Program-made: the position numbers and the translations under genes | Notes under the pieces: model-generated | What the model saw: the letters and a program-made list of their open reading frames with translations, nothing else | Told to the model about the DNA's origin: nothing | The model's database searches: none | Shown: in pieces, positions 1,602 to 16,960 of the stretch | Numbering within the stretch: the first letter of the stretch is position 1 | Layout of the letters: the number at the start of each line of letters is the position of its first letter | Source: a virus | Taxonomy: Duplodnaviria; Caudoviricetes | Strand: one strand, 5' to 3' | Virus record (IMG/VR): IMGVR_UViG_3300012203_000001 | Coordinates: 1,085 to 65,084 of that record | Length of the DNA: 64,000 bases

Positions 1602-1963
1602 TGTCGCTGGAGATGCACGCCAACGACAATTCGCGCGAAGGTCGTCCAGGTATTTGGATTTTCCAAGGGCGCGCCATTGTGTTTCTTGTCATCGGCGTTG
1701 GCGTGTTCGTCGCGCTCTTTCGAATTCTCGCATCGATTGATGTCGATTGGCCGGTGAATATCGGCGTTAGCCTTTTGCCGTTGGCCGGAATTACTTTGAT
1801 CATCCACTTGTTCGTGAACGGCAAGCCGCCGAGTTACGCCGGCGATCAACTTCTGTTTTTGTTATGGCGTTTCCGTACTCGGATGTATCTGGCCGGCGCT
1901 CTAGAACGGCCACCGGAGCTGTGGGTTAGAGATCGCAAACCAACGCACCCGAAAGAATTATGA
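1601..1963 (+). CDS. VirB3-like inner membrane protein
   Basis: True start is the ATG at 1601 (TAATG overlap); two TM segments followed by NGKPPSY; position between pilin and VirB4. Confidence 0.65.
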   Translation: MSLEMHANDNSREGRPGIWIFQGRAIVFLVIGVGVFVALFRILASIDVDWPVNIGVSLLPLAGITLIIHLFVNGKPPSYAGDQLLFLLWRFRTRMYLAGALERPPELWVRDRKPTHPKEL

Positions 1964-2148
1964 AATCAAAACCAATTACACAATCTAGATCGCAAATAAT
2001 GGCGGCGGAGTTGCGCCACGAGGCCGCGAATCTTGAGCAGGAAATCAAGGCGTTGCTCAAAGCTGCCGAAATTTTAGATAAGGCCGGCCAGAAGGATGCG
2101 ACTGAACAAGTTGAACAAAAGACGTCAGTTTTGAAAAATGTAGCCTGA
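1960..2148 (+). CDS. Hypothetical coiled-coil protein
   Basis: ATGA overlap with the upstream gene. Confidence 0.5.
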   Translation: MKSKPITQSRSQIMAAELRHEAANLEQEIKALLKAAEILDKAGQKDATEQVEQKTSVLKNVA

Positions 2149-2149
2149 T

Positions 2150-2647
2150 GTGCCGAAGATGATAACACAGGAACGTTTAAAGGAATTGTTTAATTTAGAT
2201 CCTGAAACAGGGGTTATGTATTGGAATGTACGGCCCGGAAGCCGCGGCGGACCAAAAATAGGTGATGTTGCAGGCTGTTTAAGTAGGGGTTATTGGAGAA
2301 TTAAAATAGGAACAAAACTGTATCAGCGCAGCCACCTAGTCTTTCTGTTTTATACAGGAATAGCAGCGAAACAACTGGATCACAGAAACAGAATCAAGAT
2401 AGACGATAGGCCAGATAATCTTCGTACGGCGACAACTACGGAGAACGCCAGGAATGCCATATGGTCTAAAGCTTCGTGTCTTCCTAAAGGGGTGACTTGG
2501 CGTGATAGACTTAATCCTTTTCGGGCGGATATCCAAGTTAATGGGTGTCCGATTTATCTAGGTTCGTTCCCTGCGGCCGAATTAGCTCATGCTGCCTACT
2601 GCGCTGCTGCTGAAAGGCACTTTGGAGAATTCGCTCGTTTTGCTTAA
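2150..2647 (+). CDS. HNH homing endonuclease with C-terminal AP2-like domain
   Basis: ITQERLKELF..DPETG N-terminus, LDHRNRIKIDDRPDNLR..T..EN HNH motif, KGV...YLGSF...AHAAY....HFGEFA AP2 domain. Confidence 0.9.
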   Translation: MPKMITQERLKELFNLDPETGVMYWNVRPGSRGGPKIGDVAGCLSRGYWRIKIGTKLYQRSHLVFLFYTGIAAKQLDHRNRIKIDDRPDNLRTATTTENARNAIWSKASCLPKGVTWRDRLNPFRADIQVNGCPIYLGSFPAAELAHAAYCAAAERHFGEFARFA

Positions 2648-2656
2648 TTTACTGTC

Positions 2657-5227
2657 ATGAGTTTAATTATTCCAGACGGTTATTTTTTCCAAGACCACCT
2701 TATATGGGGCGATTTAGGAAAAGGTGGAATTTTATCAAGGGGATATGAAGTCCAGTTTCCAGATTTAAGCGCTAGCGACGATGATGTTTATACTTCTCTT
2801 GAAACTGATATCCGACTGATGCTCGGGAGCCTTAGGGCTGATGAACAACTTCAGTTAATATACTTTACATCGAGTGATTTTAGCGAGCCACTAAACCGCT
2901 ACGAATCGGAGACAGTTAAGTCACTGATTGCGATTTGCAGCGACGTTCGTGCCGAGTTAGTCCAGCGGTTCAGGCAACGGATGGCTACCGAGACGTTGAT
3001 TCAAGGCGAAACGCGACTTTGGGTTTCCAGTAAGCTTCCAGGTTTTGCGAAGGAGGATGGGAGAACGGTCCGCGGATTTGACCAGGTTTCTAAGGTTGTA
3101 TCACGATCATTTGAACAGCGCTCATTGTTCTGGAATCTTCTTCTAAGTAGTTACGGTGGCAGCGTTAAAGCGCTGGACAATATCGGGCACTACGATGAGC
3201 TTTTAAAGTTCTGGTCTCCGGGGCAATCACGTTACCCACGGTGCGGCGATTTGGATTGGTTACGTCCAGTGTCAGATCTTTGTCGCTTTAGTGACATTGC
3301 ACCGCGGATGGCGCCTGAGTGCGGCTTTTATTTGGATGGCCAAGTTGTCGGCGTAATGGTCTTTAAGACGATGCCTCGATCGACGTGGATGAAGACGATG
3401 GAGGTGTTCTCATCACTGACTATTCCAGGGCTGCGTGTGATCGTGAACATGCAACCTCTACCAATCGATAATGAGATAAGGTATGAGGAGGAACGTTTCT
3501 CGAAACTCGTCAGTAATATAGATCCAAAGTCTCCAAATCTTCAGTCGGAAGTAGGATTAGATAAGCATAGAGATCGTATGCGCCGCCTGCTGAGCAATCA
3601 AACCGTTCCTTTTATGGCGCAAATTATTGTAATTGCGCATGATCGGACGAGGGATGGTCTCGATGGAAAAATGGAAGCGATTCGCGCGGCGATCGGGAAA
3701 AGTGGATGCGAAACGTATCAACCTTTGGTTCCGACTTCGGTTATTGCGTTTTTTAACTGTGCAGCCATGGGCTTCGGTCCGTGGGTTAGATATCGTGATT
3801 TTTATCACAAGATAGATGACCTCAACCTTGCAAACATGTGGTTAGCGGCTGGGTCGACGCCTCGAGCAGATCTCGAAGATGCAACTTGGATCACTGACGG
3901 ACACCTCAACAACCTTATAGGTGGCCGTTGTTTCATCGGGGCGCAGCCGCTCCACATGCTTGTCGCGGCGACAACCGGGGCTGGTAAGAGTGTGCTCTTG
4001 CAAACGTTGGTGCTACAGACGGCGCCACAATTCAAGTTTATCGTCGTGATCGATGATGGGCTTAGCTGGATGACGACTTGTCAAAAGCTCGACCCAACGC
4101 GCCAGCCTATCATCGTGCGCTCGAACGGCGACCAAACATTCAACGTGTTCGATACTAGGCGTCAACCCCTATCGAATGAGCACTTGGCGAGCGCAACGGC
4201 GCTCGTGCATTTGCTCGTGGGCCAACACGCAGATGGCGACAAGGACAAGCTTAGGCACGCGGTGATCGCGGAGACGATTTCTGATGTTTATCGGTCGGCA
4301 TTCAGGCGGTGGCGCAAGAATAATCCGCAAGCGCACTATGATCTGTGCGTTAAGTATGGTGAAGAACAGGAAGGCGAAGATCTAGTGATGGACAATTCGT
4401 TTGCGCAATGGACGCCGGATATGTTCCCTACCCTGTTTGATCTGCAGGATGAGTTGCACGCGGAGGCAACCCAAAAAGGGCCACACCAAGATTTGTGCGC
4501 GACGCTTGCCAGTCTGTTGCGGCCGTGGCTTAGGGACGGGATTTATGGTCCGATCGTTGATGGCGCGAGCAACGTTGATCTCGGTAGTACGGATATCTCG
4601 GAATCCGATCCGCTCAAAGTCGTTCACTTCGAGCTTGGTGAGATGGGTGAGAGCGAATCCGAGCTCCGCGCTGTGGTCGGCTTTTTGATCACTAATGAGG
4701 TGCGTAACCATATCCAGGGAATGCCGCGCGGATTGCGCAAACAAGTGGTGATCGAGGAAATGGTGTCCTTCCTTAAAATTCCAAACGCCGAGGAGATCAT
4801 TGTCGATTACTGGCAGAAGATGCGCAAATATAATGCGCAGATGGTTGCCGTATTCCAGAACTATTTAACGCTTTTGGAAGCGAGCCCGAAAGTAGCCAAG
4901 GCGATCGTTTCGAATTCATCGGCCATGTTGCTGTTGCGTAATCATAACAGACAAGACTTGGAGGCATTAAGCGAATTTTTGGCACGTCCTTTGCCGGAAG
5001 TGATCAAAGATCACATCACGCGGTTCCCGAAACCGAATGAGTTCACAAATCGGGACGAAGCGTATGCCGGCTTTGTGTATGTGCAGCTCGGTAACGAGGA
5101 GCCTCGATATACGGTCGGGCGCAATTACATAAGCCAACTAGTCGAGGATATTACCAGTTCTTCCGGCGATGATTTTGAGCGGAAAAAACAGGAGTTAAAT
5201 AAAATAGTCAGGATGGACGCGGCATGA
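2657..5227 (+). CDS. virB4: VirB4-family T4SS ATPase
   Basis: 856 aa; Walker A ATTGAGKS, VIDDGLSW, Walker B VVIEEM, MRKYN..Q, AIVSNS motifs. Confidence 0.9.
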   Translation: MSLIIPDGYFFQDHLIWGDLGKGGILSRGYEVQFPDLSASDDDVYTSLETDIRLMLGSLRADEQLQLIYFTSSDFSEPLNRYESETVKSLIAICSDVRAELVQRFRQRMATETLIQGETRLWVSSKLPGFAKEDGRTVRGFDQVSKVVSRSFEQRSLFWNLLLSSYGGSVKALDNIGHYDELLKFWSPGQSRYPRCGDLDWLRPVSDLCRFSDIAPRMAPECGFYLDGQVVGVMVFKTMPRSTWMKTMEVFSSLTIPGLRVIVNMQPLPIDNEIRYEEERFSKLVSNIDPKSPNLQSEVGLDKHRDRMRRLLSNQTVPFMAQIIVIAHDRTRDGLDGKMEAIRAAIGKSGCETYQPLVPTSVIAFFNCAAMGFGPWVRYRDFYHKIDDLNLANMWLAAGSTPRADLEDATWITDGHLNNLIGGRCFIGAQPLHMLVAATTGAGKSVLLQTLVLQTAPQFKFIVVIDDGLSWMTTCQKLDPTRQPIIVRSNGDQTFNVFDTRRQPLSNEHLASATALVHLLVGQHADGDKDKLRHAVIAETISDVYRSAFRRWRKNNPQAHYDLCVKYGEEQEGEDLVMDNSFAQWTPDMFPTLFDLQDELHAEATQKGPHQDLCATLASLLRPWLRDGIYGPIVDGASNVDLGSTDISESDPLKVVHFELGEMGESESELRAVVGFLITNEVRNHIQGMPRGLRKQVVIEEMVSFLKIPNAEEIIVDYWQKMRKYNAQMVAVFQNYLTLLEASPKVAKAIVSNSSAMLLLRNHNRQDLEALSEFLARPLPEVIKDHITRFPKPNEFTNRDEAYAGFVYVQLGNEEPRYTVGRNYISQLVEDITSSSGDDFERKKQELNKIVRMDAA

Positions 5228-5239
5228 AGGACTAATTAG

Positions 5240-5596
5240 ATGAACGTTAACGATGTCAAAGTGGTAGGCAACCTTGTAACAAAGCCCGAGGTGCAGTTTA
5301 CGCCTAAGGGCGTGCCGGTGACGACTGTTGCCGTAGGCGTAAATGAGACGATGCCAGGTCAAGAAAAGAAGCAAGTAACGACATTTTTGGATGTTCGTGT
5401 CTGGGGCCAGAGTGCCGAGAACCTGGCTAGGCTTGCAGCTAAAGGTCAAGAGATTTTTGTCGAGGGAGCGTTGCGCCAGGAGCAATGGCAAGACAAAGAG
5501 ACTGGTAAACCGCGCTCAAAGCTTTTTTTGAATGCCAGTAGTTGGCAGTTTACGCAACGCAAACCGGCGACGCCGAATCAAGGGATGGAACGATGA
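5240..5596 (+). CDS. ssb: Single-stranded DNA-binding protein
   Basis: N.V.VVGNL..PE..FTP.G..V, VWG..AEN, KG..IFVEG.L....W.DK.TG..RS OB-fold pattern. Confidence 0.93.
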   Translation: MNVNDVKVVGNLVTKPEVQFTPKGVPVTTVAVGVNETMPGQEKKQVTTFLDVRVWGQSAENLARLAAKGQEIFVEGALRQEQWQDKETGKPRSKLFLNASSWQFTQRKPATPNQGMER

Positions 5597-5973
5597 AAGC
5601 GACATTGCTCATCGTTGTGGTTGCGGTTGCCGGGTGCGCAAATCATCCGTTGCCGAACAGCCAAACCGCAAGTGAACGCTTTTCAACGCTGGGCGGTGGT
5701 GAACGCCGAATTGCTCGCGAGTTCTACGATTTTGGATCTGGCGATGCCATTAAGCGGCTTTTTTGGGCACAGCGCAGGATGCAAGAACAGGTCCACGGCG
5801 ACACCTCGGACGCGCAACCGACACGATTGCAGCGGAAGTACGTGGTGTTACCGGTGCCGGAACACATTGAGCCTGATGGCACGATTAAGGAAGCAAACAA
5901 CCAAGTGGTTGAGGTTGTGCAACTCTGGTCGGTTACGCGGAGTCATGGTCGAAACCTTTTTATTGTAAAATGA
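5593..5973 (+). CDS. Conjugation-associated lipoprotein
   Basis: MKATLLIVVVAVAGC lipobox; ATGA overlap with ssb. Confidence 0.7.
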   Translation: MKATLLIVVVAVAGCANHPLPNSQTASERFSTLGGGERRIAREFYDFGSGDAIKRLFWAQRRMQEQVHGDTSDAQPTRLQRKYVVLPVPEHIEPDGTIKEANNQVVEVVQLWSVTRSHGRNLFIVK

Positions 5974-6791
5974 AAACACAAATCATAGCGGTGAGCATTT
6001 TGGCTGGGCTGGTGTTTAGCGCTCGTGCCACGATCATAACTCATGACCCGTATAGCATGGCGCAGAACGCCGTCCATGAAGTGATCAACATCGTGAAGTA
6101 TGCAGGGACGCAAATCAAAACAACCGAGACGGCGCTCAACACTCTCAGGACATACGAGCAGCAAGTTGTACAACTTGCGCGGCTCGGCAACCCGGCTGCG
6201 CTACGTGCGCTTCCAGGTGTTAGCACGGTGGCTGAACTTTACGGTACTGGCCAACAACTCATGTACAATTACCAGAGTTGGCAGCAGTACCTAAACCCGC
6301 AACGATACCAGGGCGACATGAACTACATTTTAAGTTCATACCGGCAACCGAACTGGCAAGGATATAGCACATATTCCGGCTACAATGTTGCACCAAGCCA
6401 AGGTCTTTACCAGTTTGACACAGCGCGGTACAACATCGCGCAGGCCGGGAGCGATGAGCTGAAACAACTAGAACAGCAACGGCAACGACTTGAACAACAA
6501 CGGGACGTAGCGATGCAATCATTGCAATCGGCATCAACTGATGCGCAGGTCAAAAAGTATCATGGCGTTTTGGACGGGTTAAATGGCGCTCTTGCCGAGA
6601 TTGGTGCCCGGGCAAACGAGGTGGCGCACCGCGTGGCGATCAAAGCGCAGCAGATTAATGCCGGACAACAAGTTTATAGCGCTTCGCAGGCTGAGCAACG
6701 CGCGGCTGCGGCTTATAAAGGTATTGACACCGATCTTCAAGCGTTGCCGGCCGACAATTTCAGAGAAATGCATTTATGGAGCGGTAGATAA
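5970..6791 (+). CDS. VirB5/TrbJ-like minor pilin
   Basis: Signal peptide, IITHDP motif, Gln-rich coiled coils, upstream of VirB6. Confidence 0.7.
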   Translation: MKTQIIAVSILAGLVFSARATIITHDPYSMAQNAVHEVINIVKYAGTQIKTTETALNTLRTYEQQVVQLARLGNPAALRALPGVSTVAELYGTGQQLMYNYQSWQQYLNPQRYQGDMNYILSSYRQPNWQGYSTYSGYNVAPSQGLYQFDTARYNIAQAGSDELKQLEQQRQRLEQQRDVAMQSLQSASTDAQVKKYHGVLDGLNGALAEIGARANEVAHRVAIKAQQINAGQQVYSASQAEQRAAAAYKGIDTDLQALPADNFREMHLWSGR

Positions 6792-7090
6792 TGAAAATAC
6801 ACATGTTTACGTTGTATGGTTTGCTTTTTGTGGCGTTAGTCGCCGAGATCGAACTGCGCAGCGAACTCAAATCAGTTAAAGCGCAACTTATTGCGTACAA
6901 GTCTGATGCCGATTCGTCTGCTGCGGCTGCCGTTAAACAATTCGAAAAGGATGTATTCGCGCGGATTAACGGTGAAGAGGCCGCGTTAAAGCAACGCGCA
7001 GCACAAGAGGCATCAGCCGCAAGTAATGACTTGCGAGCGTTGCCGACAGATAATTTCCGATCCGGACCGAAGCCGTGGAAGGATAACTAA
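6791..7090 (+). CDS. Small membrane-anchored protein sharing a C-terminal motif with the VirB5-like protein
   Basis: N-terminal TM; DLRALPTDNFR vs DLQALPADNFR. Confidence 0.6.
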   Translation: MKIHMFTLYGLLFVALVAEIELRSELKSVKAQLIAYKSDADSSAAAAVKQFEKDVFARINGEEAALKQRAAQEASAASNDLRALPTDNFRSGPKPWKDN

Positions 7091-8491
7091 ATGCTAGCGG
7101 TCGATTTCTTGCAATTGATGCCAGGGTTCGAGACTGGGGCGAGTACACTCCATAATATTCTGATCGGGGTAACGCTCGTGCTGTCGTTCTGCGGACTGCT
7201 TTTGCTGGTCAGTCAGGGATTACGCGAGAAATCTACGCATAACATTTTACCGACTCTGGTGCGTTTGGCTGTGATCGTCATCATGGTTGGCAGTCTTGGC
7301 GCTTGGGGGAATCTGTTAGTAGATGGCGTCAACGATGTTGTGGCGCAGATGGGGTTAAATGGCATTGGTGGCGGAATCTTCGCGGCCTATCGAAACGCGG
7401 TAGCTCGCAAGTTTGGCAGTGACGGCGCAGCGCAGCAAGGCGGCCAACAGCAACAAGCGCCACAACGAAGCTTGTATTCAAATGGCGGATTAACGCCGTC
7501 AGCGAGCGGAATTCAATTGAACCATTACGGGTATGAGCAACCGGGCTCACCAAATTACGACAAGGCTTCAGCTGATGGCCGTGGCGCGTTTACGTTTGAT
7601 ACCGAGCAAGGAAGCTTGGTGCCGCTACAATCAGCGGCGCTTTCGAGCGATGTCGTTCAGGCGTACAACTTGCAACCAGGCCAAGCGTTTACGGTTAGCG
7701 CCGGCGGCCAGACCTATAATTTGATTTATGCGGACAAGACGGCCGATTATATTCAAGGCTCGGTTGATATTTATGATCCGCACCAGCAATTAGGCAGCAA
7801 TCAGCTTGTAGGCCTAACATCAATGCAAGACGGCCCTGTGGAGCAAGGCGGCGACGGGGGTCCGCTCGGCGGCTGGATTTCCAAGCTTGGCGACTCGCTC
7901 ACGGTCGGGTTGTTGTACCCGCTTGTGCATCTCCTAAGTTTGATCGCGCTCGGAATCATGTACTTGATGCAAGCAGTTCAGCAAATTTTGTATACAGTCG
8001 AAATTGCCGTTTCCCCGATTTTTATCGGGATGATGATGATCCCGCGATTGGTCGGGATCGCTACTCGGTTCTTTTGCAGTCTTGTGTCGATCTGTTTATG
8101 GGCGCTCGGGTGGGCGATATGCGATTTACTGACGCGTGCATTGATCGGGTTCGCCATTAACCCGACAAACAATCTCGCATTGAGCGCGTTCTCTGGGGCT
8201 TCAATGATGCTTGGGTACTGGGTGTTGCTCGCGGTCTGGGTGATTGGGAGCTCGTTCGTTGCGCCTCTTATTATTTCTGGTCTTATCGTTGGTGGTGGTG
8301 CCGGGGTATTGGCACCTGTATTCGGTGCGACGGTTGGTGCAATGGCCGGGATGGCGGCAGGAGGTGGTCGGCAAGCTGCGAGTGCAGCGGTCGGGGTTGC
8401 TGCGGCTCCAATATCGGTAGCGTCATCGAGCGCAATGAATGCGTTTCAAAGTTTTGCCAGGAGGCCGAAAAGTAATACGATCGGAAAATAG
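7091..8491 (+). CDS. virB6: VirB6/TrbL-like polytopic membrane protein with an inserted soluble domain
   Basis: Multiple TM helices, VSPIFIG motif, Gly/Ala-rich C-tail typical of TrbL. Confidence 0.8.
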   Translation: MLAVDFLQLMPGFETGASTLHNILIGVTLVLSFCGLLLLVSQGLREKSTHNILPTLVRLAVIVIMVGSLGAWGNLLVDGVNDVVAQMGLNGIGGGIFAAYRNAVARKFGSDGAAQQGGQQQQAPQRSLYSNGGLTPSASGIQLNHYGYEQPGSPNYDKASADGRGAFTFDTEQGSLVPLQSAALSSDVVQAYNLQPGQAFTVSAGGQTYNLIYADKTADYIQGSVDIYDPHQQLGSNQLVGLTSMQDGPVEQGGDGGPLGGWISKLGDSLTVGLLYPLVHLLSLIALGIMYLMQAVQQILYTVEIAVSPIFIGMMMIPRLVGIATRFFCSLVSICLWALGWAICDLLTRALIGFAINPTNNLALSAFSGASMMLGYWVLLAVWVIGSSFVAPLIISGLIVGGGAGVLAPVFGATVGAMAGMAAGGGRQAASAAVGVAAAPISVASSSAMNAFQSFARRPKSNTIGK

Positions 8492-8503
8492 CGCCTTTTT
8501 TTG

Positions 8504-8538
8504 TTGTAAAACGTTTCCTCTAGAATACTCTCACGCTT
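8504..8538 (+). promoter_or_regulatory. Internal tra promoter with operator GTTTC-CTCTA-GAATA
   Basis: TTGTAA-16 nt-TACTCT; shares AAACGTTTC..GAATA with the 760-778 site. Confidence 0.5.
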
Positions 8539-8832
8539 ATGGACCACGCGCATCAATTTCACCGAGCTGGCGACGAGCACATATGGCTTAACCCGGATGG
8601 CTTGTTTTTCGCGGCCTTATTTGTGTGGTCAATGCTTGGGCTGTGGCTCTATTTGGATCTTCGCCATAAGGAGCAAGTTTGCGGTGTGGTTCTATTATTC
8701 ATCGCAGGGCCGGCTGCGTGGCTAACGGCTATTTGGAATGCAGTTCACCGACATGTCGTTGAGCAACGGTTAGCGCGTAAACGGGCCATCATACGGCGCC
8801 GTGAACATCGGGAGCACTGGGGAAGGAATTGA
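8539..8832 (+). CDS. Hypothetical membrane protein
   Basis: Two TM segments, basic C-terminus; stop overlaps the next start. Confidence 0.55.
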   Translation: MDHAHQFHRAGDEHIWLNPDGLFFAALFVWSMLGLWLYLDLRHKEQVCGVVLLFIAGPAAWLTAIWNAVHRHVVEQRLARKRAIIRRREHREHWGRN

Positions 8833-9523: not shown

Positions 9524-10480
9524 ATGAGAGCTATAGCGATTCTATTTTTAACCGTGTCGCTTACTAGTGGCCAGACGATCGCCACGAAGGTGCTCTCGCC
9601 AAGCGTGCCGATCAGAATTGCGCTCTCGCCTGCTTTAACAACTACACTCTTGTTTCCGGGCCCGTTATCAGGAACGTTTGGCCTCGGGTTGGTAGCCGGA
9701 ACCAACCCGCAGGCCGCTGGGGGAACCGTACAGGTTGACCATCCGGACGGATCGAATGTTCTCGTGCTTCACGCTTTGACCGAAACTGCCCACGTTCTGG
9801 CGACTGTACTTTTAGACGGTAAGCTCTATGTTTTGGATTGTTTAGCGACCGGTGGGCAGCCTGACGTTGCTGTTACGTTTATTGGCAGCGATCAGGCTGT
9901 TCCGCGTGCAGTTGCGGTCACGCCAGAAGAAATCGCAGCCGCGCGACCGAAGTACGAACCAGAACTACTCGTCGGTTTTCTTCGCCGTGCGCACGATGCG
10001 CCTTTATTGAGCAAGCTTTACCCGGATCTTTATAATGCCTACACGTCACGCACGGCGCAATACACGAGTGACTCAGGCGCCGTAAAAACGATCGTGACCC
10101 AGATTCACCGGTTCTCAAAGGACGACGTGATTGTCTTGCAAGGCACCGTCCAGAACGAAACCGCGCAGCCATTCCAGTTCGACGGGCGATCGGCTACGGT
10201 GGAAGTCGCGAACGAGATCCACCCCATAAAACTTCTCGACTGCTTGAGGCCAATCCCACCGGGCGCGACTGTCCCGATCGATGTCGTGATCCAGGGCGAC
10301 GTGGACGGTGGCCGGGCAAACCTTAGCGCGGACAATGAGTTTAGAATCATTCTTCCTGGCGGGATTTGGGGTCTAAAGAACGGCAACGGTTCATCGAAAG
10401 GCGGGTTTAAGGTGCCTGCGCCAGTGTCGCCGGGCTCGATTCCGTTGACTCAGACTAAAGCAAAGAGAGATGTACAATGA
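9524..10480 (+). CDS. VirB9/TraK-like outer membrane core complex protein
   Basis: Signal peptide, TTTLLFP motif, beta-rich; directly precedes VirB10. Confidence 0.65.
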   Translation: MRAIAILFLTVSLTSGQTIATKVLSPSVPIRIALSPALTTTLLFPGPLSGTFGLGLVAGTNPQAAGGTVQVDHPDGSNVLVLHALTETAHVLATVLLDGKLYVLDCLATGGQPDVAVTFIGSDQAVPRAVAVTPEEIAAARPKYEPELLVGFLRRAHDAPLLSKLYPDLYNAYTSRTAQYTSDSGAVKTIVTQIHRFSKDDVIVLQGTVQNETAQPFQFDGRSATVEVANEIHPIKLLDCLRPIPPGATVPIDVVIQGDVDGGRANLSADNEFRIILPGGIWGLKNGNGSSKGGFKVPAPVSPGSIPLTQTKAKRDVQ

Positions 10481-11616
10481 CTAGGCTGATCAGATTCTTT
10501 ATTCGTGGCCCTGGCGCGATTCTCGTTGTCATTATAATCGCGCTCGGCGTTGTCGGCATCATTAAACACGGCCAGGACAAAGAGCGCGCGGAGGCCGATA
10601 AACGACAAACTCAACGGGAATTAGGGAAGGTTAATCCGCAAACCGATGTTGATAAATCGAAAGCCTCCAAGGAAGTCATTCTTTCGGATCGCAGATTGAA
10701 TCCAGGCAATAAGACAGCGCAACCTGAACCAGCACCGGCCTATAGCACTCAATTGTCAACGGCTCAGCAACGCACTGCGCTTCCGACACTCGTCTCGTTT
10801 TACACGCAAATCGCGCCTACGCCATCCCCTACCCCGGTACCGGAGGCCAAGCCGAAAGAGGCGCAAATTTGGCTACCACGCGGGATCTTTATTCCATGTG
10901 CGTTAGTCAATACGGTCGAGTCCTCACACATCAATACGCCGGTGGTCGGCGAAGTTATCCGCGACGTGTATCAGAATGGTCACCTGATCATTCCAGCCGG
11001 CGCGATTTGCACCTGCTTCGCACAAGCTGGTGCAGTTAGGGACCGGATCGAGGTTGCCGGTAAATGGTCGCTTGTGTACCCGGACGGCAAAGAGTTTGAG
11101 TTGGAAGGGATCGCTTGCGATCGCGAGGCGGACACGAGTAACCAGCAGTTCGGGATTGAGGACGGTTCTGCCGGCCTCCAAGGCGAATTAATCGAGTCTG
11201 ATCACTGGGCGAACGCCAAGGCGTTCATTGCGTTATTGATGACCTCGGCAGTTCAGGCCGGTACAGCTGCGGCAGGGTCAGCGCTGCAGGCACAGCACGG
11301 CAGCAGCTTTACGAGTTTGCCTGATACGACGCCAATCCTTTCGAAGTACCTGGATCAATTGCTCAACGGCGAGACCGGCGACGGCCGGTTTGTTCGGGTG
11401 CGGGCTTCTCGTGAGTTTTATATTTTTCCGACGGAAGTGACTTTTCCAACTCGTAGAAGTGTAGGTGGAAAGCGTCAAGAGTCAGAAGAAGCTAAAGAAC
11501 AATCAGTTTCAAAAGCGCCATCAGATCCGGTGCAAGCGGCTATTCAAGCGGAACGCGAGATCCTTCGTACAAGCCAACCAGATTCATCGCCAACTCCTGA
11601 AAGGATGCATTACTAG
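10477..11616 (+). CDS. virB10: VirB10/TrbI core complex protein
   Basis: N-terminal TM, Pro-rich linker, LP.G.FIPC.LVNTV.S...TPVVG.V..DV, IIPAG, DGSAGL.G motifs. Confidence 0.9.
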   Translation: MTRLIRFFIRGPGAILVVIIIALGVVGIIKHGQDKERAEADKRQTQRELGKVNPQTDVDKSKASKEVILSDRRLNPGNKTAQPEPAPAYSTQLSTAQQRTALPTLVSFYTQIAPTPSPTPVPEAKPKEAQIWLPRGIFIPCALVNTVESSHINTPVVGEVIRDVYQNGHLIIPAGAICTCFAQAGAVRDRIEVAGKWSLVYPDGKEFELEGIACDREADTSNQQFGIEDGSAGLQGELIESDHWANAKAFIALLMTSAVQAGTAAAGSALQAQHGSSFTSLPDTTPILSKYLDQLLNGETGDGRFVRVRASREFYIFPTEVTFPTRRSVGGKRQESEEAKEQSVSKAPSDPVQAAIQAEREILRTSQPDSSPTPERMHY

Positions 11617-11617
11617 C

Positions 11618-12305
11618 ATGGATGGCAAGCGTTGCACGAAGTGCGGAATAATTATGACCATAGACTGTTTTACAAAAAATAAAACAGCGTCAGATGGATT
11701 GAACTGGCAATGCAAAATCTGTTACCGCGAGTATTACGAAGCGAACAAGGAAACGTACTTTATTCGTTCTGATGAATTTTATAAGCGAAACAGGCTTACT
11801 AAATTAGCTAGACAGAGGGAGCGACGCGAGGCCGATGGTCGCCGCATTCGCATTAGAGCATAAAGCCTACATGGCGATATGGAATAAAGAAAATCGACAA
11901 TTAAGATTAAACTGGAACAAGGACAACCGTAAGTACTTGCGGGATTATTATCAGGAGCGTTTAAAGAATAATCCAGCTTACAAAGTGAGAGTGAGATTGG
12001 CCATAAGGCTAAATAAGTGTCTCACTAGACGAGGTACGGTAAAGGCTGCTACCACAATGAAATTAGTTGGGTGCGCTATCGATGAGTTAATGCTTCACCT
12101 TCAAAACCAGTTCCGAGAAGGCATGTCTTGGAACAATTATGGGCCGATTTGGCATATTGACCATATTCGTCCATGTGCGTCATTCGATCTCACTGATCCA
12201 GAACAACAAAAAGTGTGTTTTCATTTCAGTAATCTTCAGCCGCTTTTCGGGGAAGAGAATCTTAAAAAAGGAAAGAAATATGTTGAAAATAATATCGGTG
12301 GTTAG
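11618..12305 (+). pseudogene. Endonuclease VII/HNH-like homing endonuclease split by a 1-nt frameshift near 11837
   Basis: N-part KRCTKC...DGLNWQCKIC (11618..11863) and C-part WHIDHIRPCASFDL...CFHFSNLQPL...NLKKG (11835..12305) lie in adjacent frames. Confidence 0.7.
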
Positions 12306-12933
12306 CTTGACAGCAGTCGCCTTCTCAGGCTGTGCGACAAAGGAGACCACATACTGGGAACACGGGAAGAAAGGCACTGTCATCGTGCATCACGTGCGGA
12401 AAACCCAAAATGGAACAAGCGATCGAACGGAGAAGTTGACAACGAAAGTAATCGAGCCAGGCCAGATCCACGTCTATGATTTAGGACGACTTCCGGACGG
12501 AAATGGCGGCATGGCGGAAGCTCACCGCTACTACCGCGTAGAGCAATCCGAGACGCTCGATTTGCGTCTTACGCCAGCCAACAAGCTAAAGCCAACGGGT
12601 CCACGCACCGTGTTTACTCCACCAACCTATTCGCCGTTGCCGAAAGATCAGCGGATCAACGATGCGGTGGCCGATGCGAACCAGGCCAAGGAGAAACTCG
12701 ACGAGGCGCGCGGGAAGATCGAGCAGCAGTTGGCAAGCGATAATAACCTCCGCGGTGAGCTTCAGACGGCGATTGATGATAACCAAAAACTTCACGATCA
12801 ACTCTCGGCCGCCATGTCCACTCCTCAACGTTCACCATCGAATGGTCCCGCGCAATCGGATGCGTCCAAGGCTGGGCAAGCTGCCGGTTCAGATCCTCTT
12901 GCACAGTGGGGCGATAAGGTTCAGCCAAAATGA
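12280..12933 (+). CDS. Lipoprotein (TraV/VirB7-like role possible) with coiled coil
   Basis: MLKIISVVSLTAVAFSGC lipobox; strong RBS AAGGAAAG. Confidence 0.7.
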   Translation: MLKIISVVSLTAVAFSGCATKETTYWEHGKKGTVIVHHVRKTQNGTSDRTEKLTTKVIEPGQIHVYDLGRLPDGNGGMAEAHRYYRVEQSETLDLRLTPANKLKPTGPRTVFTPPTYSPLPKDQRINDAVADANQAKEKLDEARGKIEQQLASDNNLRGELQTAIDDNQKLHDQLSAAMSTPQRSPSNGPAQSDASKAGQAAGSDPLAQWGDKVQPK

Positions 12934-13166
12934 AAGACTACGAGAAATACGAGCAGGAACTTCGTGCGGAGTTTGTTTCCAAACATCCGAATGCTACGCC
13001 TGAACAGTTAATAGAGAACTATCGCGAAAATACCGGATTGGTAATGGCTTTCATCGCACAGAAGAACGTGGACGCGATTGATCGCGATAGGATTGAGCGG
13101 ATCAATGATTGGTTGGGTAGCGCTTGGCGCGGTAGCCGTGGCGTGGTGGAGGAAATTGAGCGATGA
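12930..13166 (+). CDS. Hypothetical protein
   Basis: ATGA-coupled on both sides. Confidence 0.55.
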   Translation: MKDYEKYEQELRAEFVSKHPNATPEQLIENYRENTGLVMAFIAQKNVDAIDRDRIERINDWLGSAWRGSRGVVEEIER

Positions 13167-13447
13167 CTGGAGCAGAATTTCACGGATATACACGCGCCAT
13201 AGGAGCACCAGAGAACTGGAAAGAAAATAGGGATGCAGATTGCGTTCCTTTGTTCGTTCGAGATGGAGAGATGGCGGGGCATCATTCGATGGAATCAGTA
13301 TGGGTTTTGTCAGATGCAGAGCGTGAAGAAATAGTACGCGGCGCAAATATTTCTCTAATGATTCTGGGTACCGTTCATCCACCGGTCACGTTGACCGTTA
13401 CTAGGGTTAAAATATTGGATAATGACCCGCATTTAATGCAGCGATGA
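13163..13447 (+). CDS. Phage-type hypothetical protein
   Basis: GAP.NW....C..L......S.W..S..E...I..GA.I.L.I.G..HPPV pattern recalled from phage accessory genes; ATGA-coupled. Confidence 0.6.
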   Translation: MTGAEFHGYTRAIGAPENWKENRDADCVPLFVRDGEMAGHHSMESVWVLSDAEREEIVRGANISLMILGTVHPPVTLTVTRVKILDNDPHLMQR

Positions 13448-14367
13448 TGCCTCTTCTTTCTCCCGAGTTGCTGTTGCGGCTCAACACGATTGGAGATTTC
13501 CTTGGAGAAAATATTCTAGGCCAGCACGAGGTATTGGCTGATATCGTCGCGTTGTTGCAACGTTCCTTTCTAGGCATCCGCTTCCGGAATCGTCCAGTTG
13601 CCTCGATGCTTTTTCTGGGGCCAACCGGCGTGGGCAAGACCGAGACGGTGAATTTGTTCACGCGTCATTTGTTTGGCGATGATGGTGGTAAACTCGTTAG
13701 GCTCGACATGAGCGAGTACATGACGGTGGACTCGATCGGAATCTTGCGCGGCCAAGATACACAGGATTGCGGGTTGCTAGGACTTTATACGAGACGGACC
13801 GGAGATCATGGTACGTTGCTTTTCGATGAGATCGAAAAGGCACACCCGCTCATTATGGACGTATTCTTGCAGATCTTATCCGCCGGCAGGTTTACGCTGG
13901 CGACTGGTGAGACTCTCGACTTGAGCAACTACGTCGTTGTGGCGACGTCTAACATAGGCTCGCGGGTTTTAATGGAAAGCAGGTCAACCGATCGGGAAAC
14001 GATTGTGCGGCGAACGACGCAGGCCGGCACGACCGAGATGCGGCCCGAAACTTTTCGCCGGTTCGATCTTCATTGCGTTTTTAACAAGCTTGATTTCCTG
14101 ACGCTGAAGGCGATTGGCCAACTGCACGTAAACAAGTGTTTGGAGATCATCAACGCGCAAGGTCATTGCGTTAATGTGGAACCGAGCGTGGTCGAGTATA
14201 TCCAGCGCGAAGGTTACTCGGAAAAGTTCGGGGCCGCCTGGATGCAGACTGCGGCGATGCGGATTCTCGGGGATGTTGTCGCTGCGGAGATGCTCAAGAA
14301 CGGGGGAGAGCCGGTAACGGGGACGATTGTGTATGATAGGCGGACGAACCGGTACTTTCTTCAATGA
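13444..14367 (+). CDS. ClpB/ClpA second-domain-like AAA+ ATPase (stand-alone)
   Basis: RPVASMLFLGPTGVGKTE, RLDMSEY, LLFDEIEKAHP, TSNIGS, GYS.KFGA motifs; only 307 aa. Confidence 0.9.
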   Translation: MMPLLSPELLLRLNTIGDFLGENILGQHEVLADIVALLQRSFLGIRFRNRPVASMLFLGPTGVGKTETVNLFTRHLFGDDGGKLVRLDMSEYMTVDSIGILRGQDTQDCGLLGLYTRRTGDHGTLLFDEIEKAHPLIMDVFLQILSAGRFTLATGETLDLSNYVVVATSNIGSRVLMESRSTDRETIVRRTTQAGTTEMRPETFRRFDLHCVFNKLDFLTLKAIGQLHVNKCLEIINAQGHCVNVEPSVVEYIQREGYSEKFGAAWMQTAAMRILGDVVAAEMLKNGGEPVTGTIVYDRRTNRYFLQ

Positions 14368-14576
14368 AGGATAATTTCAAACCGTGTCCGTTCTGTGGTT
14401 CAAGTTATCTAGGCATACAGCCGACTGAAGATTTAGGGGTGTCATCGTCTGGTACGCATAGTTGGCAGCTTGCACGAGTTTATTGCCAGAACTGTTCGGC
14501 TGGTGGAGCGCAGGTTGATACAGAAGAAGAGGCTATCGCAGCTTGGAACACTCGAGCAGATACGAAAATTCAATGA
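14364..14576 (+). CDS. Lar-family restriction alleviation protein
   Basis: KPCPFCG...C..C.A.G.....EEAIAAWNTR signature. Confidence 0.85.
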   Translation: MKDNFKPCPFCGSSYLGIQPTEDLGVSSSGTHSWQLARVYCQNCSAGGAQVDTEEEAIAAWNTRADTKIQ

Positions 14577-16024
14577 GCTTTTTATCATGGCCGCGTCGTC
14601 GGGAAGTGTCCGCACCGGTACCAACTGGGAAGTGGCCGCTCGAATTCCCCCTGGTCCGTTTCGGTGAACACTATGCGGATATCTGGACGCTGGCCGACGC
14701 CGCGCAAGGTGTCGTGATCCTCGGCGAGAATGGCAGTGGCAAAACGTCCGGGTCTGGTGCGCTCCTAGCCCGCAAATATCTAAAAGCTGGGTTTGGTGGC
14801 CTTGTCCTATGCTTTAAAACAGACGAGGCGGATCTATGGCGCTCATACTTGAAAGCAACGGGCCGCGAATCCGATGGCCGGTTCTTTAGCGTCGACAACG
14901 GGTTCACGTTCAACTTCCTTGATTACGAGGCGCAAACCAGCGGAATCGATTTCGCGGAGAACATCGTGACCCTACTCGTCGACGTCGCCAGCATTCATAT
15001 GCGGGCCGAGGTCGGCGGTGCTGAAGCACACTTCTGGTTGCCGCAAAAAAAGAAACTCTTACGGAACGCAATCACACTTCTTCTTCTGGCGTCTGAACCT
15101 ATCCAGTTGCGCTCGCTTTACGAAATGATCGTGTCGGCACCGAAGGATGCGCAGCAAGCCGCGTCAGACGATTGGCAAAATTCCAGCTTTCTATTCAAGC
15201 TTCTTGAACGAGGTAACCAAGCGGCTAGTAATCATCCGGAATGGAAACTGATCACGAACTACTGGATGCTAGAGCGGCCGTCGCTCGCGCCCAAGACTCG
15301 GGAAACGATTGACGCGGATTTTACCGGGATGTTCGATCCGCTCACCCGCGGCAAGATCGGGCAGTTATTCGGGACCGGGACCAACCTGACGCCGCAGGAC
15401 ATTCTTGATGGCAAGGTTGCGGTGATCGATATCCCGGTTGCTAAGTATCGGGAGGTCGGCCAGTACGCGGCGCTAATCTGGGCGCAACTCTTCCAACGCG
15501 CGGTTGATCGCCGGGATTACACGGCACCGGATAGTCGGCCAGTTTTTTTGTGGGAAGACGAGGCGCACTACTTTACCATCGATCAAGATGCGCTATTCCA
15601 AACTACTGCACGGTCGAAAGGGATCTCAGTGGTTCGGCTCACCCAGAACTTGCCGAACTTTCTGGACGCTTACGGACGCGATGGCCGGCACAAGGTTGAT
15701 ACGCTTCTTGGCAATCACGCCACAAAGATCTTTCACCGGAACGGTGACCCGACCACGAACGAATGGGCGGCAAAGGTGATCGCGAAAGAGACCGGGTACA
15801 AACATTCGTTGTCAGCAAGTGGGTCGATTCAATCGGCCAGTGGGTTTAATGCATCGACGAGTGTGTCCGAAGTGGAAGAGGATTCGTGTCCTCCGAAAGA
15901 ATTTATCGGGCTCAAGAACGGCGGTAAAAAGAATCAGAATGTCGTGGAAGGTATCCTGTTTCAATCCGGCCGGCTATGGAATCGGGATCAGCGTTGGGCG
16001 GTAAGGCGATTTAAACAGGCATGA
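14573..16024 (+). CDS. virD4: VirD4/TraD-type coupling protein (no obvious TM anchor)
   Basis: Walker A GENGSGKTSG, FNFLDYE, WEDEAH, ARS.G....TQNLP, LLGN..TKIF motifs. Confidence 0.85.
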   Translation: MSFLSWPRRREVSAPVPTGKWPLEFPLVRFGEHYADIWTLADAAQGVVILGENGSGKTSGSGALLARKYLKAGFGGLVLCFKTDEADLWRSYLKATGRESDGRFFSVDNGFTFNFLDYEAQTSGIDFAENIVTLLVDVASIHMRAEVGGAEAHFWLPQKKKLLRNAITLLLLASEPIQLRSLYEMIVSAPKDAQQAASDDWQNSSFLFKLLERGNQAASNHPEWKLITNYWMLERPSLAPKTRETIDADFTGMFDPLTRGKIGQLFGTGTNLTPQDILDGKVAVIDIPVAKYREVGQYAALIWAQLFQRAVDRRDYTAPDSRPVFLWEDEAHYFTIDQDALFQTTARSKGISVVRLTQNLPNFLDAYGRDGRHKVDTLLGNHATKIFHRNGDPTTNEWAAKVIAKETGYKHSLSASGSIQSASGFNASTSVSEVEEDSCPPKEFIGLKNGGKKNQNVVEGILFQSGRLWNRDQRWAVRRFKQA

Positions 16025-16266
16025 GTGACAATGCTCGCATTAAGGTTGGTTCTTCTATGTGGATGGATTTCCGATGGTGGCGATGGCCTGATGTGCCACA
16101 AACGACACCAACACTCATCGATGAGCAATTAGTGTTTTCCGTGACCAAGGATAGAATGAAACCGGGCTGGTCTGAGCTTCGAGCTGATGGGTTCGGAGGA
16201 AAACCCTACGGAAATGGTTCGATTTTTATAGAAGATAAATATCTTGAACCATTAGTGGAGTTATGA
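16021..16266 (+). CDS. Hypothetical protein
   Basis: ATGA-coupled. Confidence 0.5.
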   Translation: MSDNARIKVGSSMWMDFRWWRWPDVPQTTPTLIDEQLVFSVTKDRMKPGWSELRADGFGGKPYGNGSIFIEDKYLEPLVEL

Positions 16267-16577
16267 TCGAACGCGAAAAACCTAGAATCAAAAAGCGCCG
16301 CCCTGGCATGTGCTCATGGTGCGGCGAGGCTATCACGGTCGGAAGTGAGTTTGATTGGTGGCCATCCGTGAATGACGACGGTGTACCAAACGGAAGTTGC
16401 TCAATGCACCCGGAGTGCGATGACGCCTATCGACTGTCGTACCGCGAAACGTTTCCTAAGTTCGAGTTTGTTCGTGGCGGCAAAGAGAAAAAACCGGAGA
16501 TCATCGATGCAGAAGAAAAAGCCGATCAGATAGAGGCGCTCAAATGGGCGTGGGATAACGGGAAGATTGCCAAGTGA
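16263..16577 (+). CDS. Phage-type Zn-binding hypothetical protein
   Basis: CSWCGE.I..G...MHPEC motif. Confidence 0.6.
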   Translation: MIEREKPRIKKRRPGMCSWCGEAITVGSEFDWWPSVNDDGVPNGSCSMHPECDDAYRLSYRETFPKFEFVRGGKEKKPEIIDAEEKADQIEALKWAWDNGKIAK

Positions 16578-16960
16578 TGAACAATCCCAATCAAACTCCG
16601 ATCCAAGAAGCGGTCAGCCTAATCACGATCGCCGCGCTCTTGATCGCGGTCGCCTGCTACCTGGCCGCGATGAACAACGTGCCTTTCCTCGCGCCGTGTC
16701 TTTTCTGGGTCGCCACGCAAGCGTACCATTTCTTTCCGGCCTTGAACTATCTGCGGTCGCCGCAGGTCCCGATGGTGGTCAGCGCGGCTGCGGTGGGTTG
16801 CAGTGTTTGGCTGGTGGGTATTCCCTTCGCTAGCATCTTGGCCGCCTGGTTCAATCAATCGCAAATGGCCGGCCTTGAGCGTCAAACCGTGCGGCTCAAG
16901 CGCAACAGAGCGCGAATAGTGAAACGTCGCCGGGATAAAGATGGATTCGACGTGGTGTGA
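16574..16960 (+). CDS. Hypothetical membrane protein
   Basis: Two to three TM segments, basic C-terminus. Confidence 0.6.
   Translation: MMNNPNQTPIQEAVSLITIAALLIAVACYLAAMNNVPFLAPCLFWVATQAYHFFPALNYLRSPQVPMVVSAAAVGCSVWLVGIPFASILAAWFNQSQMAGLERQTVRLKRNRARIVKRRRDKDGFDVV

Follow-up and report, generated by a model that had tools for sequence, protein, structure and literature searches.

A putative phage–conjugation hybrid from soil, with lineage-specific phage-style genes at the boundaries of its conjugation operon

Introduction

How does a conjugation operon come to lie inside the genome of a tailed phage, and what do the small genes standing between its conserved genes say of its history? Both questions are raised by the IMG/VR virus record IMGVR_UViG_3300012203_000001 (Duplodnaviria; Caudoviricetes; 65,084 bp), of which bases 1085–65084 were analysed here as a single stretch of 64,000 nt (the window, to whose positions all coordinates refer unless otherwise stated). 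An initial annotation of positions 1960–16960 described a tra operon of a type IV secretion system (T4SS) with phage-type accessory genes woven into it through start/stop overlaps. It took this as a sign that the operon had long exchanged genes with a phage gene pool, and was neither a recent insertion of an integrative conjugative element (ICE) nor an assembly chimera. Our analysis confirmed the interleaving in part, and lent partial support to the interpretation placed upon it.

We consider it likely that the window belongs to a fused element in which a conjugation module of approximately 21 kb lies between the small and large terminase genes (terS and terL) of a phage, was present before the window's genome separated from its relative G001, and was colonised later at its gene boundaries. 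Hereafter, G000 (G0) denotes the genome of the window, G001 (G1), G002 (G2), G003, G006 and G007 are relatives fetched for comparison, and L numbers denote loci from metagenomes or metagenome-assembled genomes (MAGs).

A conjugation module between terS and terL

The 123-bp direct terminal repeat of the record indicates a circular assembly with 64,961 unique bases; CheckV rated the record 100% complete. TerL, a portal, an HK97-type major capsid protein (MCP) and tail genes are all present on this circular record. The window genome is thus a complete siphophage-like tailed phage (Caudoviricetes) of about 65 kb, and its host is probably a member of the soil Verrucomicrobiota. The conjugation module in the same genome spans positions 710–20574, together with a small regulatory block, and the region 1960–16960 is its mating-pore and coupling-protein part. 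It encodes VirB4, VirB6-, VirB8-, VirB9- and VirB10-like proteins, a ClpB-like AAA+ ATPase, VirD4 and a MOBF relaxase, including the three components by which a conjugative T4SS is recognized, namely, a VirB4-family ATPase, a type IV coupling protein (T4CP) and a relaxase.

The downstream border of the module is formed by TerL (20898–22292, + strand; 464 aa), which gave no Pfam match and was identified from profile and fold. A profile built from 11 TerL relatives matched terminases in the PDB (8dkr, 4.4e-7; Sf6 gp2, 3.6e-6), and the structure model (pLDDT 77) was closest to Sf6 gp2 (5.6e-20), followed by the T4 gp17, D6E and HK97 terminases. At the upstream border, a TerS-like helix-turn-helix (HTH) protein is encoded at 63449–63973 (+ strand; start uncertain), downstream of a ParB-methylase gene. 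The C-terminal 35 aa of this protein are 71% identical to the TerS of G001; the ORF (open reading frame) matched phrog_664 and phrog_645, and not phrog_4102, the family of the G001 protein.

A megablast search of positions 1–20000 against phages and plasmids gave no match. With VirB4 as query, tblastn detected nothing in phages and only a 23% match on an Opitutaceae plasmid, and a single-protein VirB4 scan of IMG/VR returned nothing; relatives were reached by alignments. VirB4 had 120 related clusters listed at E<=0.001, of which 116 were at 42–75% identity, all from metagenomes or MAGs and with Verrucomicrobia as the only names. For VirD4, 1166 relatives were obtained at E<=1e-30, a single one of which bore a name, Chthoniobacterales.

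The closest complete relative, G001 (IMG/VR, 66,519 bp, CheckV 100%), is syntenic with the window over both the phage and the T4SS modules and has the same relaxase-to-terL junction, with protein identities of 58% for VirB4, 79% for VirD4, 72% for the relaxase, 79–80% for TerL, 77% for the portal and 75% for the MCP. In the 36.6-kb record G002, the start of the T4SS (VirB4 62%) is linked to phage genes, namely a tail gene, the replication block and a gene for a fibre-like protein of 1518 aa. Two sister phages lack the T4SS: G006 (44.6 kb; TerL 79%, portal 60%, MCP 58%) and G007 (33 kb; TerL 58%), with neither VirB4 nor VirD4 found anywhere in their records. In G007, terS (phrog_4102, 2.3e-12) overlaps terL; in G006, a homing endonuclease gene (phrog_314, 7.5e-17) separates terS from the terL downstream of it, and it is this junction that holds the conjugation module in the window. 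In G001, the module is immediately preceded by a terS homologue (66% to that of G006; phrog_4102, 4.3e-10), situated at the far end of the contig. From the upstream position of terS in G001 and the window, and its adjacency to terL in the sisters, we concluded that the module is located between the two terminase genes.

The same T4SS core, including a single-stranded DNA-binding protein (SSB) and the AAA+ ATPase, was also found in a phage-free setting, at approximately 32–51.6 kb of a 346-kb contig (C38) of G003, a Verrucomicrobiae MAG. On one side it is flanked by a P-type ATPase and a VIT gene, and on the other by genes for a CCA enzyme, an amylase and IleRS; no portal, TerL or MCP match was found on this contig. 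The TrwC relaxase gene of this element is interrupted by an insertion sequence with a DDE transposase (35323–36901 of the contig; 15323–16901 of locus L028), and its VirB4 and AAA+ are each in two ORFs, which may reflect decay or long-read errors.

Age and reality of the combination

Comparison of G0 with G1 showed synonymous sites (dS) to be saturated in both modules. The non-synonymous divergence (dN) was similar in the two modules, at 0.16–0.34 for T4SS genes and 0.15–0.19 for TerL, MCP and protease; omega was 0.05–0.19 in seven of the 14 genes compared, with dS undefined owing to saturation in the other seven. A six-frame search detected one PF00589 match each in G000 and G001 and no second tyrosine recombinase, and no direct repeat of at least 11 bp was found between the borders of the module. 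With the same arrangement in G001 and G002, these results uphold the earlier view that the region is neither a chimera nor a recent ICE insertion. Judged from these sequence comparisons, the module appears to be old in the phage lineage and to have been present before the G0–G1 split, while a chimera or a recent insertion is very unlikely.

Further occurrences are suggested by catalogue data, in which clusters of T4SS proteins and of TerL were recorded on contigs of equal length (63,851; 36,273; 21,321; 22,320; 68,547; 22,996; 30,824; 32,017; and 66,817/66,833 bp). These matching values suggest nine more phage-plus-T4SS contigs, with TerL 65–89% identical to that of the window. Contigs from run X1 were identical to the window and bridge positions 1901–3546, 9431–12515, 12495–14472 and 20271–21900. 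Run X2, from another study, yielded near-identical short contigs of both the T4SS and the terL parts, none long enough to span the junctions between module and phage; the stretches that they leave uncovered (3902–4568 and 19243–19909) carry no meaning.

Genes interleaved at the boundaries of the conjugation operon

Eight junctions, at 12930, 13163, 13444, 14364, 14573, 16021, 16263 and 16574, had been listed as 4-nt start/stop overlaps, and all eight proved to be so, seven of the ATGA type and one (16574) of the GTGA type. They are consecutive. Overlaps of this length occur at 11 of 27 junctions in the T4SS module compared with five of 28 in the structural module, and at a base rate of 29%, the chance of a run of eight was approximately 0.002 over the block by our own arithmetic. 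Two of the starts are a matter of choice rather than fact, as 14573 has an alternative in a TTG at 14543 and 16574 in an ATG at 16577. By reading, few of the eight overlapped starts are preceded by a Shine–Dalgarno-like motif.

The first inserted genes precede VirB4. An HNH-AP2 endonuclease had been placed between VirB3 and VirB4, and both the endonuclease and VirB4 were confirmed, but the ORF taken for VirB3 (1960–2148, + strand; 62 aa; ATGA overlap with the upstream gene) is not VirB3, because it has no transmembrane segment and no homologue in the relatives; the conserved gene that abuts VirB4 is the C-terminal part of 1328–1963, with two transmembrane segments. The HNH-AP2 gene (2150–2647, + strand) matched PF13392 HNH_3 (3.5e-6; 27.0 bits against a cut-off of 24.8), AP2 (7.7e-4; 20.1 bits, under its cut-off) and phrog_99 (1.3e-49). 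With an HNH domain in a small ORF between conserved genes, and absence from the same junction in G001, G002, G003, L006, L007 and L009, it has the properties of a free-standing homing-type endonuclease. Its homologues were found in 1088 phage records and 18 plasmid records (17 of the 18 non-mobilizable), indicating a strong phage bias.

An endoVII-like gene had been noted after VirB10. Such a gene is present there, although it is really one HNH-type gene (11618–12305, + strand) split by a frameshift near 11847 into ORFs 11618–11863 and 11835–12305, both of which matched phrog_1035 (2.4e-9 and 8e-10). The gene fits exactly between the VirB10 stop (11616) and the start of a lipoprotein gene (~12283), and a three-frame reading gave an N-terminal part with a CxxC zinc finger and a C-terminal part that resembles HNH. 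A contig from X2, the second soil study, has one base fewer at 11847, which by frame arithmetic restores an intact ORF of 228 aa.

Among the four ORFs described as phage hypotheticals, that description held for 13163–13447 (+ strand; 94 aa), which matched phrog_34105 (4.8e-8) and nine phage records (best 45%) and is absent from the relatives, but not for the other three, which had no PHROG match. Two of these, 12930–13166 (+ strand; 78 aa; ATGA overlaps on both sides) and 16021–16266 (+ strand; 81 aa; ATGA overlaps), are likewise absent from the relatives and had no match in Pfam, PHROGs or NCBIfam. The third, 16263–16577 (+ strand; 104 aa), is Cys-rich and gave no match in phage records. Its family is rare, as a search of 1.84 billion proteins returned 31 representatives at E<=0.001. 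It showed 40% identity over 40 aa to an ORF of G001 (11953–12165 on the reverse-complement map) located between the VirB9-like gene and VirB10, and this small Cys-rich family may hop between junctions.

A Lar gene, a member of the restriction-alleviation family, was confirmed between the AAA+ ATPase and VirD4 at 14364–14576 (+ strand), with PF14354 above its cut-off (6.2e-10; 39.6 bits against 28.6; residues 4–65) and a phrog_599 match (2.4e-12). Its homologues are commoner on plasmids (101 records) than in phages (five records), and the gene is not specific to phages. Finally, a lipoprotein-like ORF on the opposite strand (16964–17317, −) stands in a 490-bp gap upstream of the relaxase gene and has no homologue in the relatives; its N-terminus presumably is a signal ending in Cys, and a surface or entry-exclusion role would be a guess.

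The distribution of these genes was examined in the relatives and in 81 VirD4-anchored loci (80 metagenome loci and L111, the locus of G001 itself). The nine genes (1960, HNH-AP2, HNH/endoVII-like, 12930, 13163, Lar, 16021, 16263 and 16964) gave no tblastn match in G001, G002, the G003 contig, L006, L007 or L009, and no match in the 81 loci; in G001, for example, the lipoprotein gene follows VirB10 directly. The proposal of a long exchange could have been undone by the same genes standing at the same positions in an ordinary phage-free ICE. No such case was found, and the G003 element has none of them, while its own extra ORFs had no Pfam or PHROG match. L037, which may be a phage or an ICE locus, is a partial exception with a Lar-like gene at the AAA/VirD4 junction (phrog_599, 4.4e-7; 34.5% over 55 aa to the window Lar), in an insert that also holds a PAPS reductase gene (phrog_424, 2.5e-31).

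The same junctions hold other genes in the relatives. At the VirB3-like/VirB4 junction, G001 carries a 54-aa zinc finger resembling an HNH N-terminus (phrog_5351, 9e-7) and a 79-aa ORF, and G002 a 68-aa ORF; the gap is 7–35 nt in L006, L007 and L009 and approximately 165 nt in G003. At the AAA/VirD4 junction, inserts of 0.44–2.1 kb were present in five of the 15 loci holding both genes (L111 included), and that of G001 contains a small ORF that reads by eye as HTH-like. Between VirD4 and the conserved two-transmembrane gene downstream of it, the gap was <=58 nt in 16 of the 29 loci with both genes, ~160–280 nt in nine and >1.3 kb in four, and the insert of L077 begins with an HNH gene (phrog_1571, 1.1e-21). 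An endoVII gene also lies upstream of the relaxase in G001 (PF02945, 4.9e-15). Since different occupants stand at the same junctions across the relatives, and no inserts are shared, the inserts are recent and lineage-specific. They thus lend no support to the long exchange that had been proposed, and point to recent phage-style traffic rather than ancient weaving.

Composition of the secretion system

The conserved part of the module begins with a 143-aa ORF of no assigned function (710–1141, + strand), syntenic in G001 and G002 (39% to each by tblastn) and without Pfam or PHROG match, followed by a small conserved ORF (1153–1338, + strand; 61 aa; 56% to G001, 44% to L047 and L053). The next gene (1328–1963, + strand) encodes a VirB2/VirB3-like protein, named from topology and position, with transmembrane segments at residues 116–134 and 145–163. 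Its conservation is confined to the C-terminal ~120 aa, and the true start may be later; in G001, G002, G003, L006, L007 and L009, the gene immediately upstream of VirB4 is a homologue. The VirB4-type ATPase (2657–5227, + strand) matched PF19044 (1.5e-12) and, under the NCBIfam cut-offs in each case, TIGR02746, TIGR00929 and NF045971. The SSB gene (5240–5596, + strand; PF00436, 9.6e-24) occupies the same place in G001 (63%), G003 (61%) and L006 (50%).

Downstream, a weakly conserved ORF (5615–5968, + strand; 117 aa; 30% to G001 by tblastn, with the G001 and G002 ORFs at this place 57% alike) precedes a secreted protein of 273 aa (5970–6791, + strand), VirB5-like by position, with an N-terminal hydrophobic segment and homologues in G001 (69%), G002 (52%), G003 (52%), L006 (46%) and L007 (41%). 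It is followed by a membrane-anchored ORF (6791–7090, + strand; 99 aa; one transmembrane segment; 47% to G001, 32% to L006) and by a polytopic membrane protein (7091–8491, + strand; G001 60%, G003 42%, L006 44%), the nine hydrophobic segments of which, some overlapping, suggest a VirB6/TrbL-like protein on the basis of topology. Beyond an ORF with two transmembrane segments (8539–8832, + strand; 97 aa; 43% to G001) lies a bitopic protein (8829–9422, + strand; 73–74% to G001, G003 and L006), for which the Atlas structure match (TM-score 0.73) was to a cluster that is 99% PF04335 VirB8, and the ten best named Atlas matches all fell within one clan. A secreted protein (9524–10480, + strand; conserved at 63–71%; ATGA overlap with VirB10) is a weak lead to VirB9/CagX, with CagX on 13% of the top Atlas cluster and a TM-score of 0.33 to a TrbG/VirB9 cluster. 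VirB10/TrbI (10477–11616, + strand) matched PF03743 (4e-12) and is conserved at 59–62%. The putative envelope core is thus drawn from a family match for VirB10, structure for the VirB8-like protein, the weak VirB9 lead and topology for the VirB6-like protein.

The lipoprotein gene after the HNH/endoVII-like insert (12283–12933, + strand; G001 65%, G003 52%, L006 44%) may play a VirB7-like role, with an N-terminus that we take to be lipobox-like. The AAA+ ATPase (13444–14367, + strand) is a single-module protein similar to the D2 module of ClpB (PF07724, 3.5e-25; ClpB_D2-small; TIGR03346, 1.8e-50, under cut-off), 75% identical to its counterpart in G001, 74% to that in G003 and 69% to that in L006, and present in 15 of the 81 VirD4-anchored loci. 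Extra depth and loose ends were seen in the read contigs over its Walker region (13610–13848), with one 187-base joint (13637>13825). We rejected this joint as a variant of the element; the sequence is a conserved AAA+ core, and the contigs are probably Clp-like ones of other organisms.

The coupling protein VirD4 (14573–16024, + strand; PF12696, 8.8e-10; PF10412, 4.1e-5) has the Walker A motif GENGSGKT and no predicted N-terminal transmembrane segment. The conserved protein encoded downstream (16574–16960, + strand), which has two such segments and occurs in 29 of the 81 loci (28 metagenome loci and L111; G001 65%, G003 60%), is a possible split membrane anchor for it. The relaxase-helicase (17451–20252, + strand; G001 72%, G003 33–36%) is of the MOBF (TrwC/TraI) type, with matches to PF08751 (7e-31), PF13604 (1.9e-34) and NF041492 MobF (2.3e-23; 83 bits against a cut-off of 100), a helicase Walker A motif at residue 479 and a His-rich motif at residues 173–191 that is presumably the relaxase motif. 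The last module gene (20188–20574, + strand) is associated with the relaxase, which it follows in G001 (55%), G003 (40%), L040 and L041. A TerS role was considered for this gene and dropped, given that it travels with the relaxase in phage-free relatives and that the TerS homologue lies upstream of the module; the latter also led us to drop it for 20686–20907.

After the TerS-like ORF, a block of approximately 2 kb with six small leftward ORFs runs across the circular junction (G000 positions 124–1084, of which the 961 bases lie outside the window, and then window positions 1–708). It includes an HTH-like ORF (475–708, −) and faces the rightward conjugation operon, of which it could be the switch.

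As a whole, the T4SS proteins recognized by hidden Markov models were VirB4, VirB10, VirD4 and the relaxase, and NCBIfam named no others. In place of a recognized pilin and VirB11, the module has the two-transmembrane candidate at 1328–1963 and the ClpB-like AAA+ ATPase, which stands where VirB11 might be expected. Some mating-pair formation (MPF) types lack VirB11. Since the SSB and AAA+ genes occupy the same places in G001, G003 and L006, they are native to this T4SS family. The family is very divergent, with a ClpB-like AAA+ in the place of VirB11, a T4CP lacking a transmembrane segment with a two-transmembrane partner, and an embedded SSB, and is common in soil Verrucomicrobiota.

The phage backbone

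Among the head and tail genes, the Mu-like portal (PF06074, 4.7e-65) and the MCP (phrog_1005, 2.2e-21) are accompanied by MuF, a head protease, an adaptor, a major tail protein, a tape measure protein, distal tail proteins and a fibre with a GH43 domain. EndoVII, HNH, C5-methylase, VRR-NUC, exonuclease and Sak4 are encoded in a leftward block, and further replication and recombination genes include a DnaB-like helicase, the tyrosine recombinase and the ParB-methylase, in which a ParB-N domain is fused to a methylase. Among the window genes, neither ParA nor Rep was recognized; the only genes bearing on a phage-plasmid lifestyle were the ParB-N-methylase, the DnaB-like helicase and the integrase.

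Between terL and the portal gene (22498–23518), we observed a 103-aa ORF with two transmembrane segments and a GH46-family, lysozyme-like protein, which may represent a holin with its endolysin or, alternatively, a wall hydrolase of the VirB1 kind. G001 conserves neither gene and has approximately 7 kb in their place, including proteins of 720 aa and 923 aa (the latter GH30-like). The fibre-like protein at 43619–47113 (1164 aa) combines GH43, CHB_HEX_C and F5/8-type-C domains and is 36% similar to large proteins located elsewhere in G001 and G002. An autotransporter beta-domain protein is encoded at 50093–51406 (−; PF03797, 2.1e-22), with a 48% homologue in G001 on the opposite strand of its map. 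More endoVII, HNH and homing endonuclease genes are dispersed in the backbone (51853–52329, −; 53295–53669, −) and in the relatives (L113, 4973–5584 and 9381–10013; L021, 1189–1545).

Alternative origins

Four other explanations were weighed against a fused phage–conjugation element. The element might primarily be a conjugative plasmid or ICE that captured or domesticated a phage structural module, with virions not its route of transfer, or with the phage genes serving as a gene transfer agent (GTA) or tailocin. It does carry a complete Mpf apparatus, T4CP and relaxase under purifying selection, its terS and terL are 21 kb apart, and the TerS-like ORF of the window does not match the TerS family of G001. 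The relatives that lack the T4SS, however, have the same head genes with terS adjacent to terL, from which the simplest polarity is entry of the module into a phage; moreover, the structural, lysis-like and replication genes are all intact in G0 and G1, and the genomes cluster at 64–69 kb, as expected under a packaging limit. We therefore regard this origin as unlikely.

A recent nested or tandem composite, with an ICE integrated in a prophage and both elements still separable, would have precedents: Huang et al. (Sci Adv 2026, PMC13651849) catalogue 612 phage–ICE tandems in RefSeq genomes, including nested ICE::Phage arrangements, and p1002-1, termed a 'conjugative phage-plasmid', is presented in the SegMantX preprint (10.1101/2025.03.14.643293) as two known E. 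coli plasmids fused into one, one conjugative and one a phage-plasmid. The T4SS core is also near that of the chromosomal element in G003. In such tandems each element would be expected to have its own integrase and att borders, but G000 and G001 each have one tyrosine recombinase and the module no border repeat. Both junctions are kept in G001 at 58–80% protein identity with saturated dS, and the module shares the orientation of the late genes, against which it is tightly packed; a separable composite is quite improbable.

A further possibility, that the interleaved genes are ancestral to the T4SS operon and were lost in the relatives, could draw on their tight 4-nt coupling with core genes and on the gene resembling Lar that L037 has at this junction. 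Against it, HNH genes are well known as mobile insertions. The absence of the inserts from G001, G002, G003, L006, L007, L009 and the 81 loci, the short distance between VirD4 and the two-transmembrane gene in 16 of 29 loci, and occupants that vary by lineage make this highly unlikely. An assembly chimera in which a phage was joined to a conjugative element with comparable coverage, conceivable for a metagenome assembly whose X2 contigs are too short for the junctions, is extremely unlikely given the relaxase-to-terL junction in G001 from another metagenome, the phage-to-T4SS junction in G002, the G001-type element on five or six contigs of ~66.8 kb from several sources, the window's proteins on a 65,102-bp ENA contig, the X1 contig 20271–21900 that joins the last module gene to terL, and the even GC content and skew over the whole window.

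Several observations weigh against the fused phage–conjugation element that we favour. All NCBIfam T4SS scores are far under the curated cut-offs, indicating a distant member, and neither a pilin (VirB2) nor VirB11 was recognized in Pfam, NCBIfam and PHROGs scans of the window proteins. An oriT was not found, with no inverted repeat of at least 8 bp in 16900–17470, and counts of promoter-like sites (ten, against a shuffle mean of 16.6) and terminator-like sites (20 against 22.6) were uninformative. The ORFs at 1960, 12930 and 16021 are called from their openness and tight coupling. On the side of the comparisons, the relatives without a T4SS are incomplete records, X1 is possibly the source sample of the window and hence not independent, most of the 80 metagenome loci are too short for a phage or ICE context to be read, and the contrast of three of three with zero of four at the VirB3-like/VirB4 junction comes from few, partly unclassified loci. 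Transfer by either route is predicted from sequence, and a genome of 65 kb may be too large for the capsid, a point that also speaks for a plasmid or ICE origin. Several T4SS proteins of G003 are as near to G0 as are those of G1 (82% vs 79% for VirD4; 73% vs 72% for the VirB8-like protein), while the VirB6-like protein, the lipoprotein and the relaxase favour G0 with G1. A single old capture is thus only one reading, and exchange with ICEs may have been repeated.

Under the fused-element explanation, the module would be derived from, or shared with, an integrated conjugative element family of the same phylum. Inside the phage genome, each lineage would on its own have gained promoter-less genes of phage style at the gene boundaries of the module (HNH-AP2, HNH/endoVII-like, Lar and small ORFs). 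The HNH genes may have entered by homing or illegitimate recombination during co-infection, in the manner of free-standing phage endonucleases, while Lar and the small ORFs would be moron-like cargo, of which Lar may shield incoming DNA from restriction by either route. Such inserts would be expressed through translational coupling at the 4-nt stop/start overlaps, without promoters of their own, and the element would most likely move both in virions and by conjugation.

Relation to known elements

Phi1207.3 has reportedly been termed a 'conjugative prophage'. Phage–ICE tandems resemble the window element in that a prophage and a conjugation machine are joined and potentially co-transferred, with ICEs nested in phage genomes. 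In the window, by contrast, there is one recombinase, no bounding repeats are present, and the module, placed between terS and terL, is kept in diverged genomes of 64–69 kb. The authors of the tandem study stress the interplay of two elements 'rather than a hybrid element' (PMC13651849), while the window element looks fused and co-evolving.

With phage-plasmids, it shares a circular form and the union of phage and plasmid-type functions; it differs in having an integrase, in that a replication and partition set of plasmid type was not identified, and in that its phage and T4SS parts, both intact, have long been together. The term 'conjugative phage-plasmid' also appears in passing in 10.64898/2025.12.20.690322. 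Gain of mob/oriT is described mainly for P1-like phage-plasmids from which phage genes had been lost, according to the relevant passages of Pfeifer & Rocha 2024 (PMC10879196), and virion transfer and conjugation are treated as alternative strategies with opposite trade-offs in the corresponding parts of PMC12282955, Pfeifer et al. 2021 (PMC7969092) and PMC10879196. Our literature search found no description of such a phage–conjugation family, although the supplementary lists of PMC7969092 and PMC13651849 may hold similar cases.

The inserts are comparable to free-standing phage HNH endonucleases (HNH_3-AP2) and morons, which are likewise small promoter-less genes between conserved genes with presence/absence polymorphism, except that the genes invaded here are conjugation genes (VirB3-like/VirB4 and VirB10/lipoprotein) and not phage replication or structural genes; homing itself is predicted. 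The T4SS has in common with VirB/Trb systems and MOBF elements of the R388 TrwC type its VirB4, VirB6/8/9/10-like proteins, T4CP and TrwC-family relaxase-helicase in one operon order. It differs in HMM scores far under the cut-offs, a conserved ClpB-D2-like AAA+ with no VirB11 recognized, a T4CP that lacks an N-terminal transmembrane segment and is paired with a conserved two-transmembrane protein, and an SSB embedded after VirB4.

Significance

Known combinations of phage and conjugation machinery are recent fusions or tandems. The window element looks different: its phage and conjugation machineries are intact and run in the same direction, and both are under purifying selection and retained in strongly diverged genomes. 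We read it as a fused, old and diversified phage–conjugative hybrid with a very divergent T4SS and a tra operon that has phage-type gene traffic. We put forward tentatively that it represents a family of ~64–69-kb phages of soil Verrucomicrobiota with a permanent conjugation apparatus in the late region, which would spread by virion or by conjugation and whose tra operon evolves and is invaded in the same way as phage DNA. If this is true, the family would be a natural system for studying how one element chooses between the virion and conjugation routes, how a capsid limit tolerates an addition of 21 kb, and whether conjugation bypasses the receptor specificity of a phage. It would also mean that a tra operon, on coming to reside in a phage, is colonised by homing endonucleases and anti-restriction genes.

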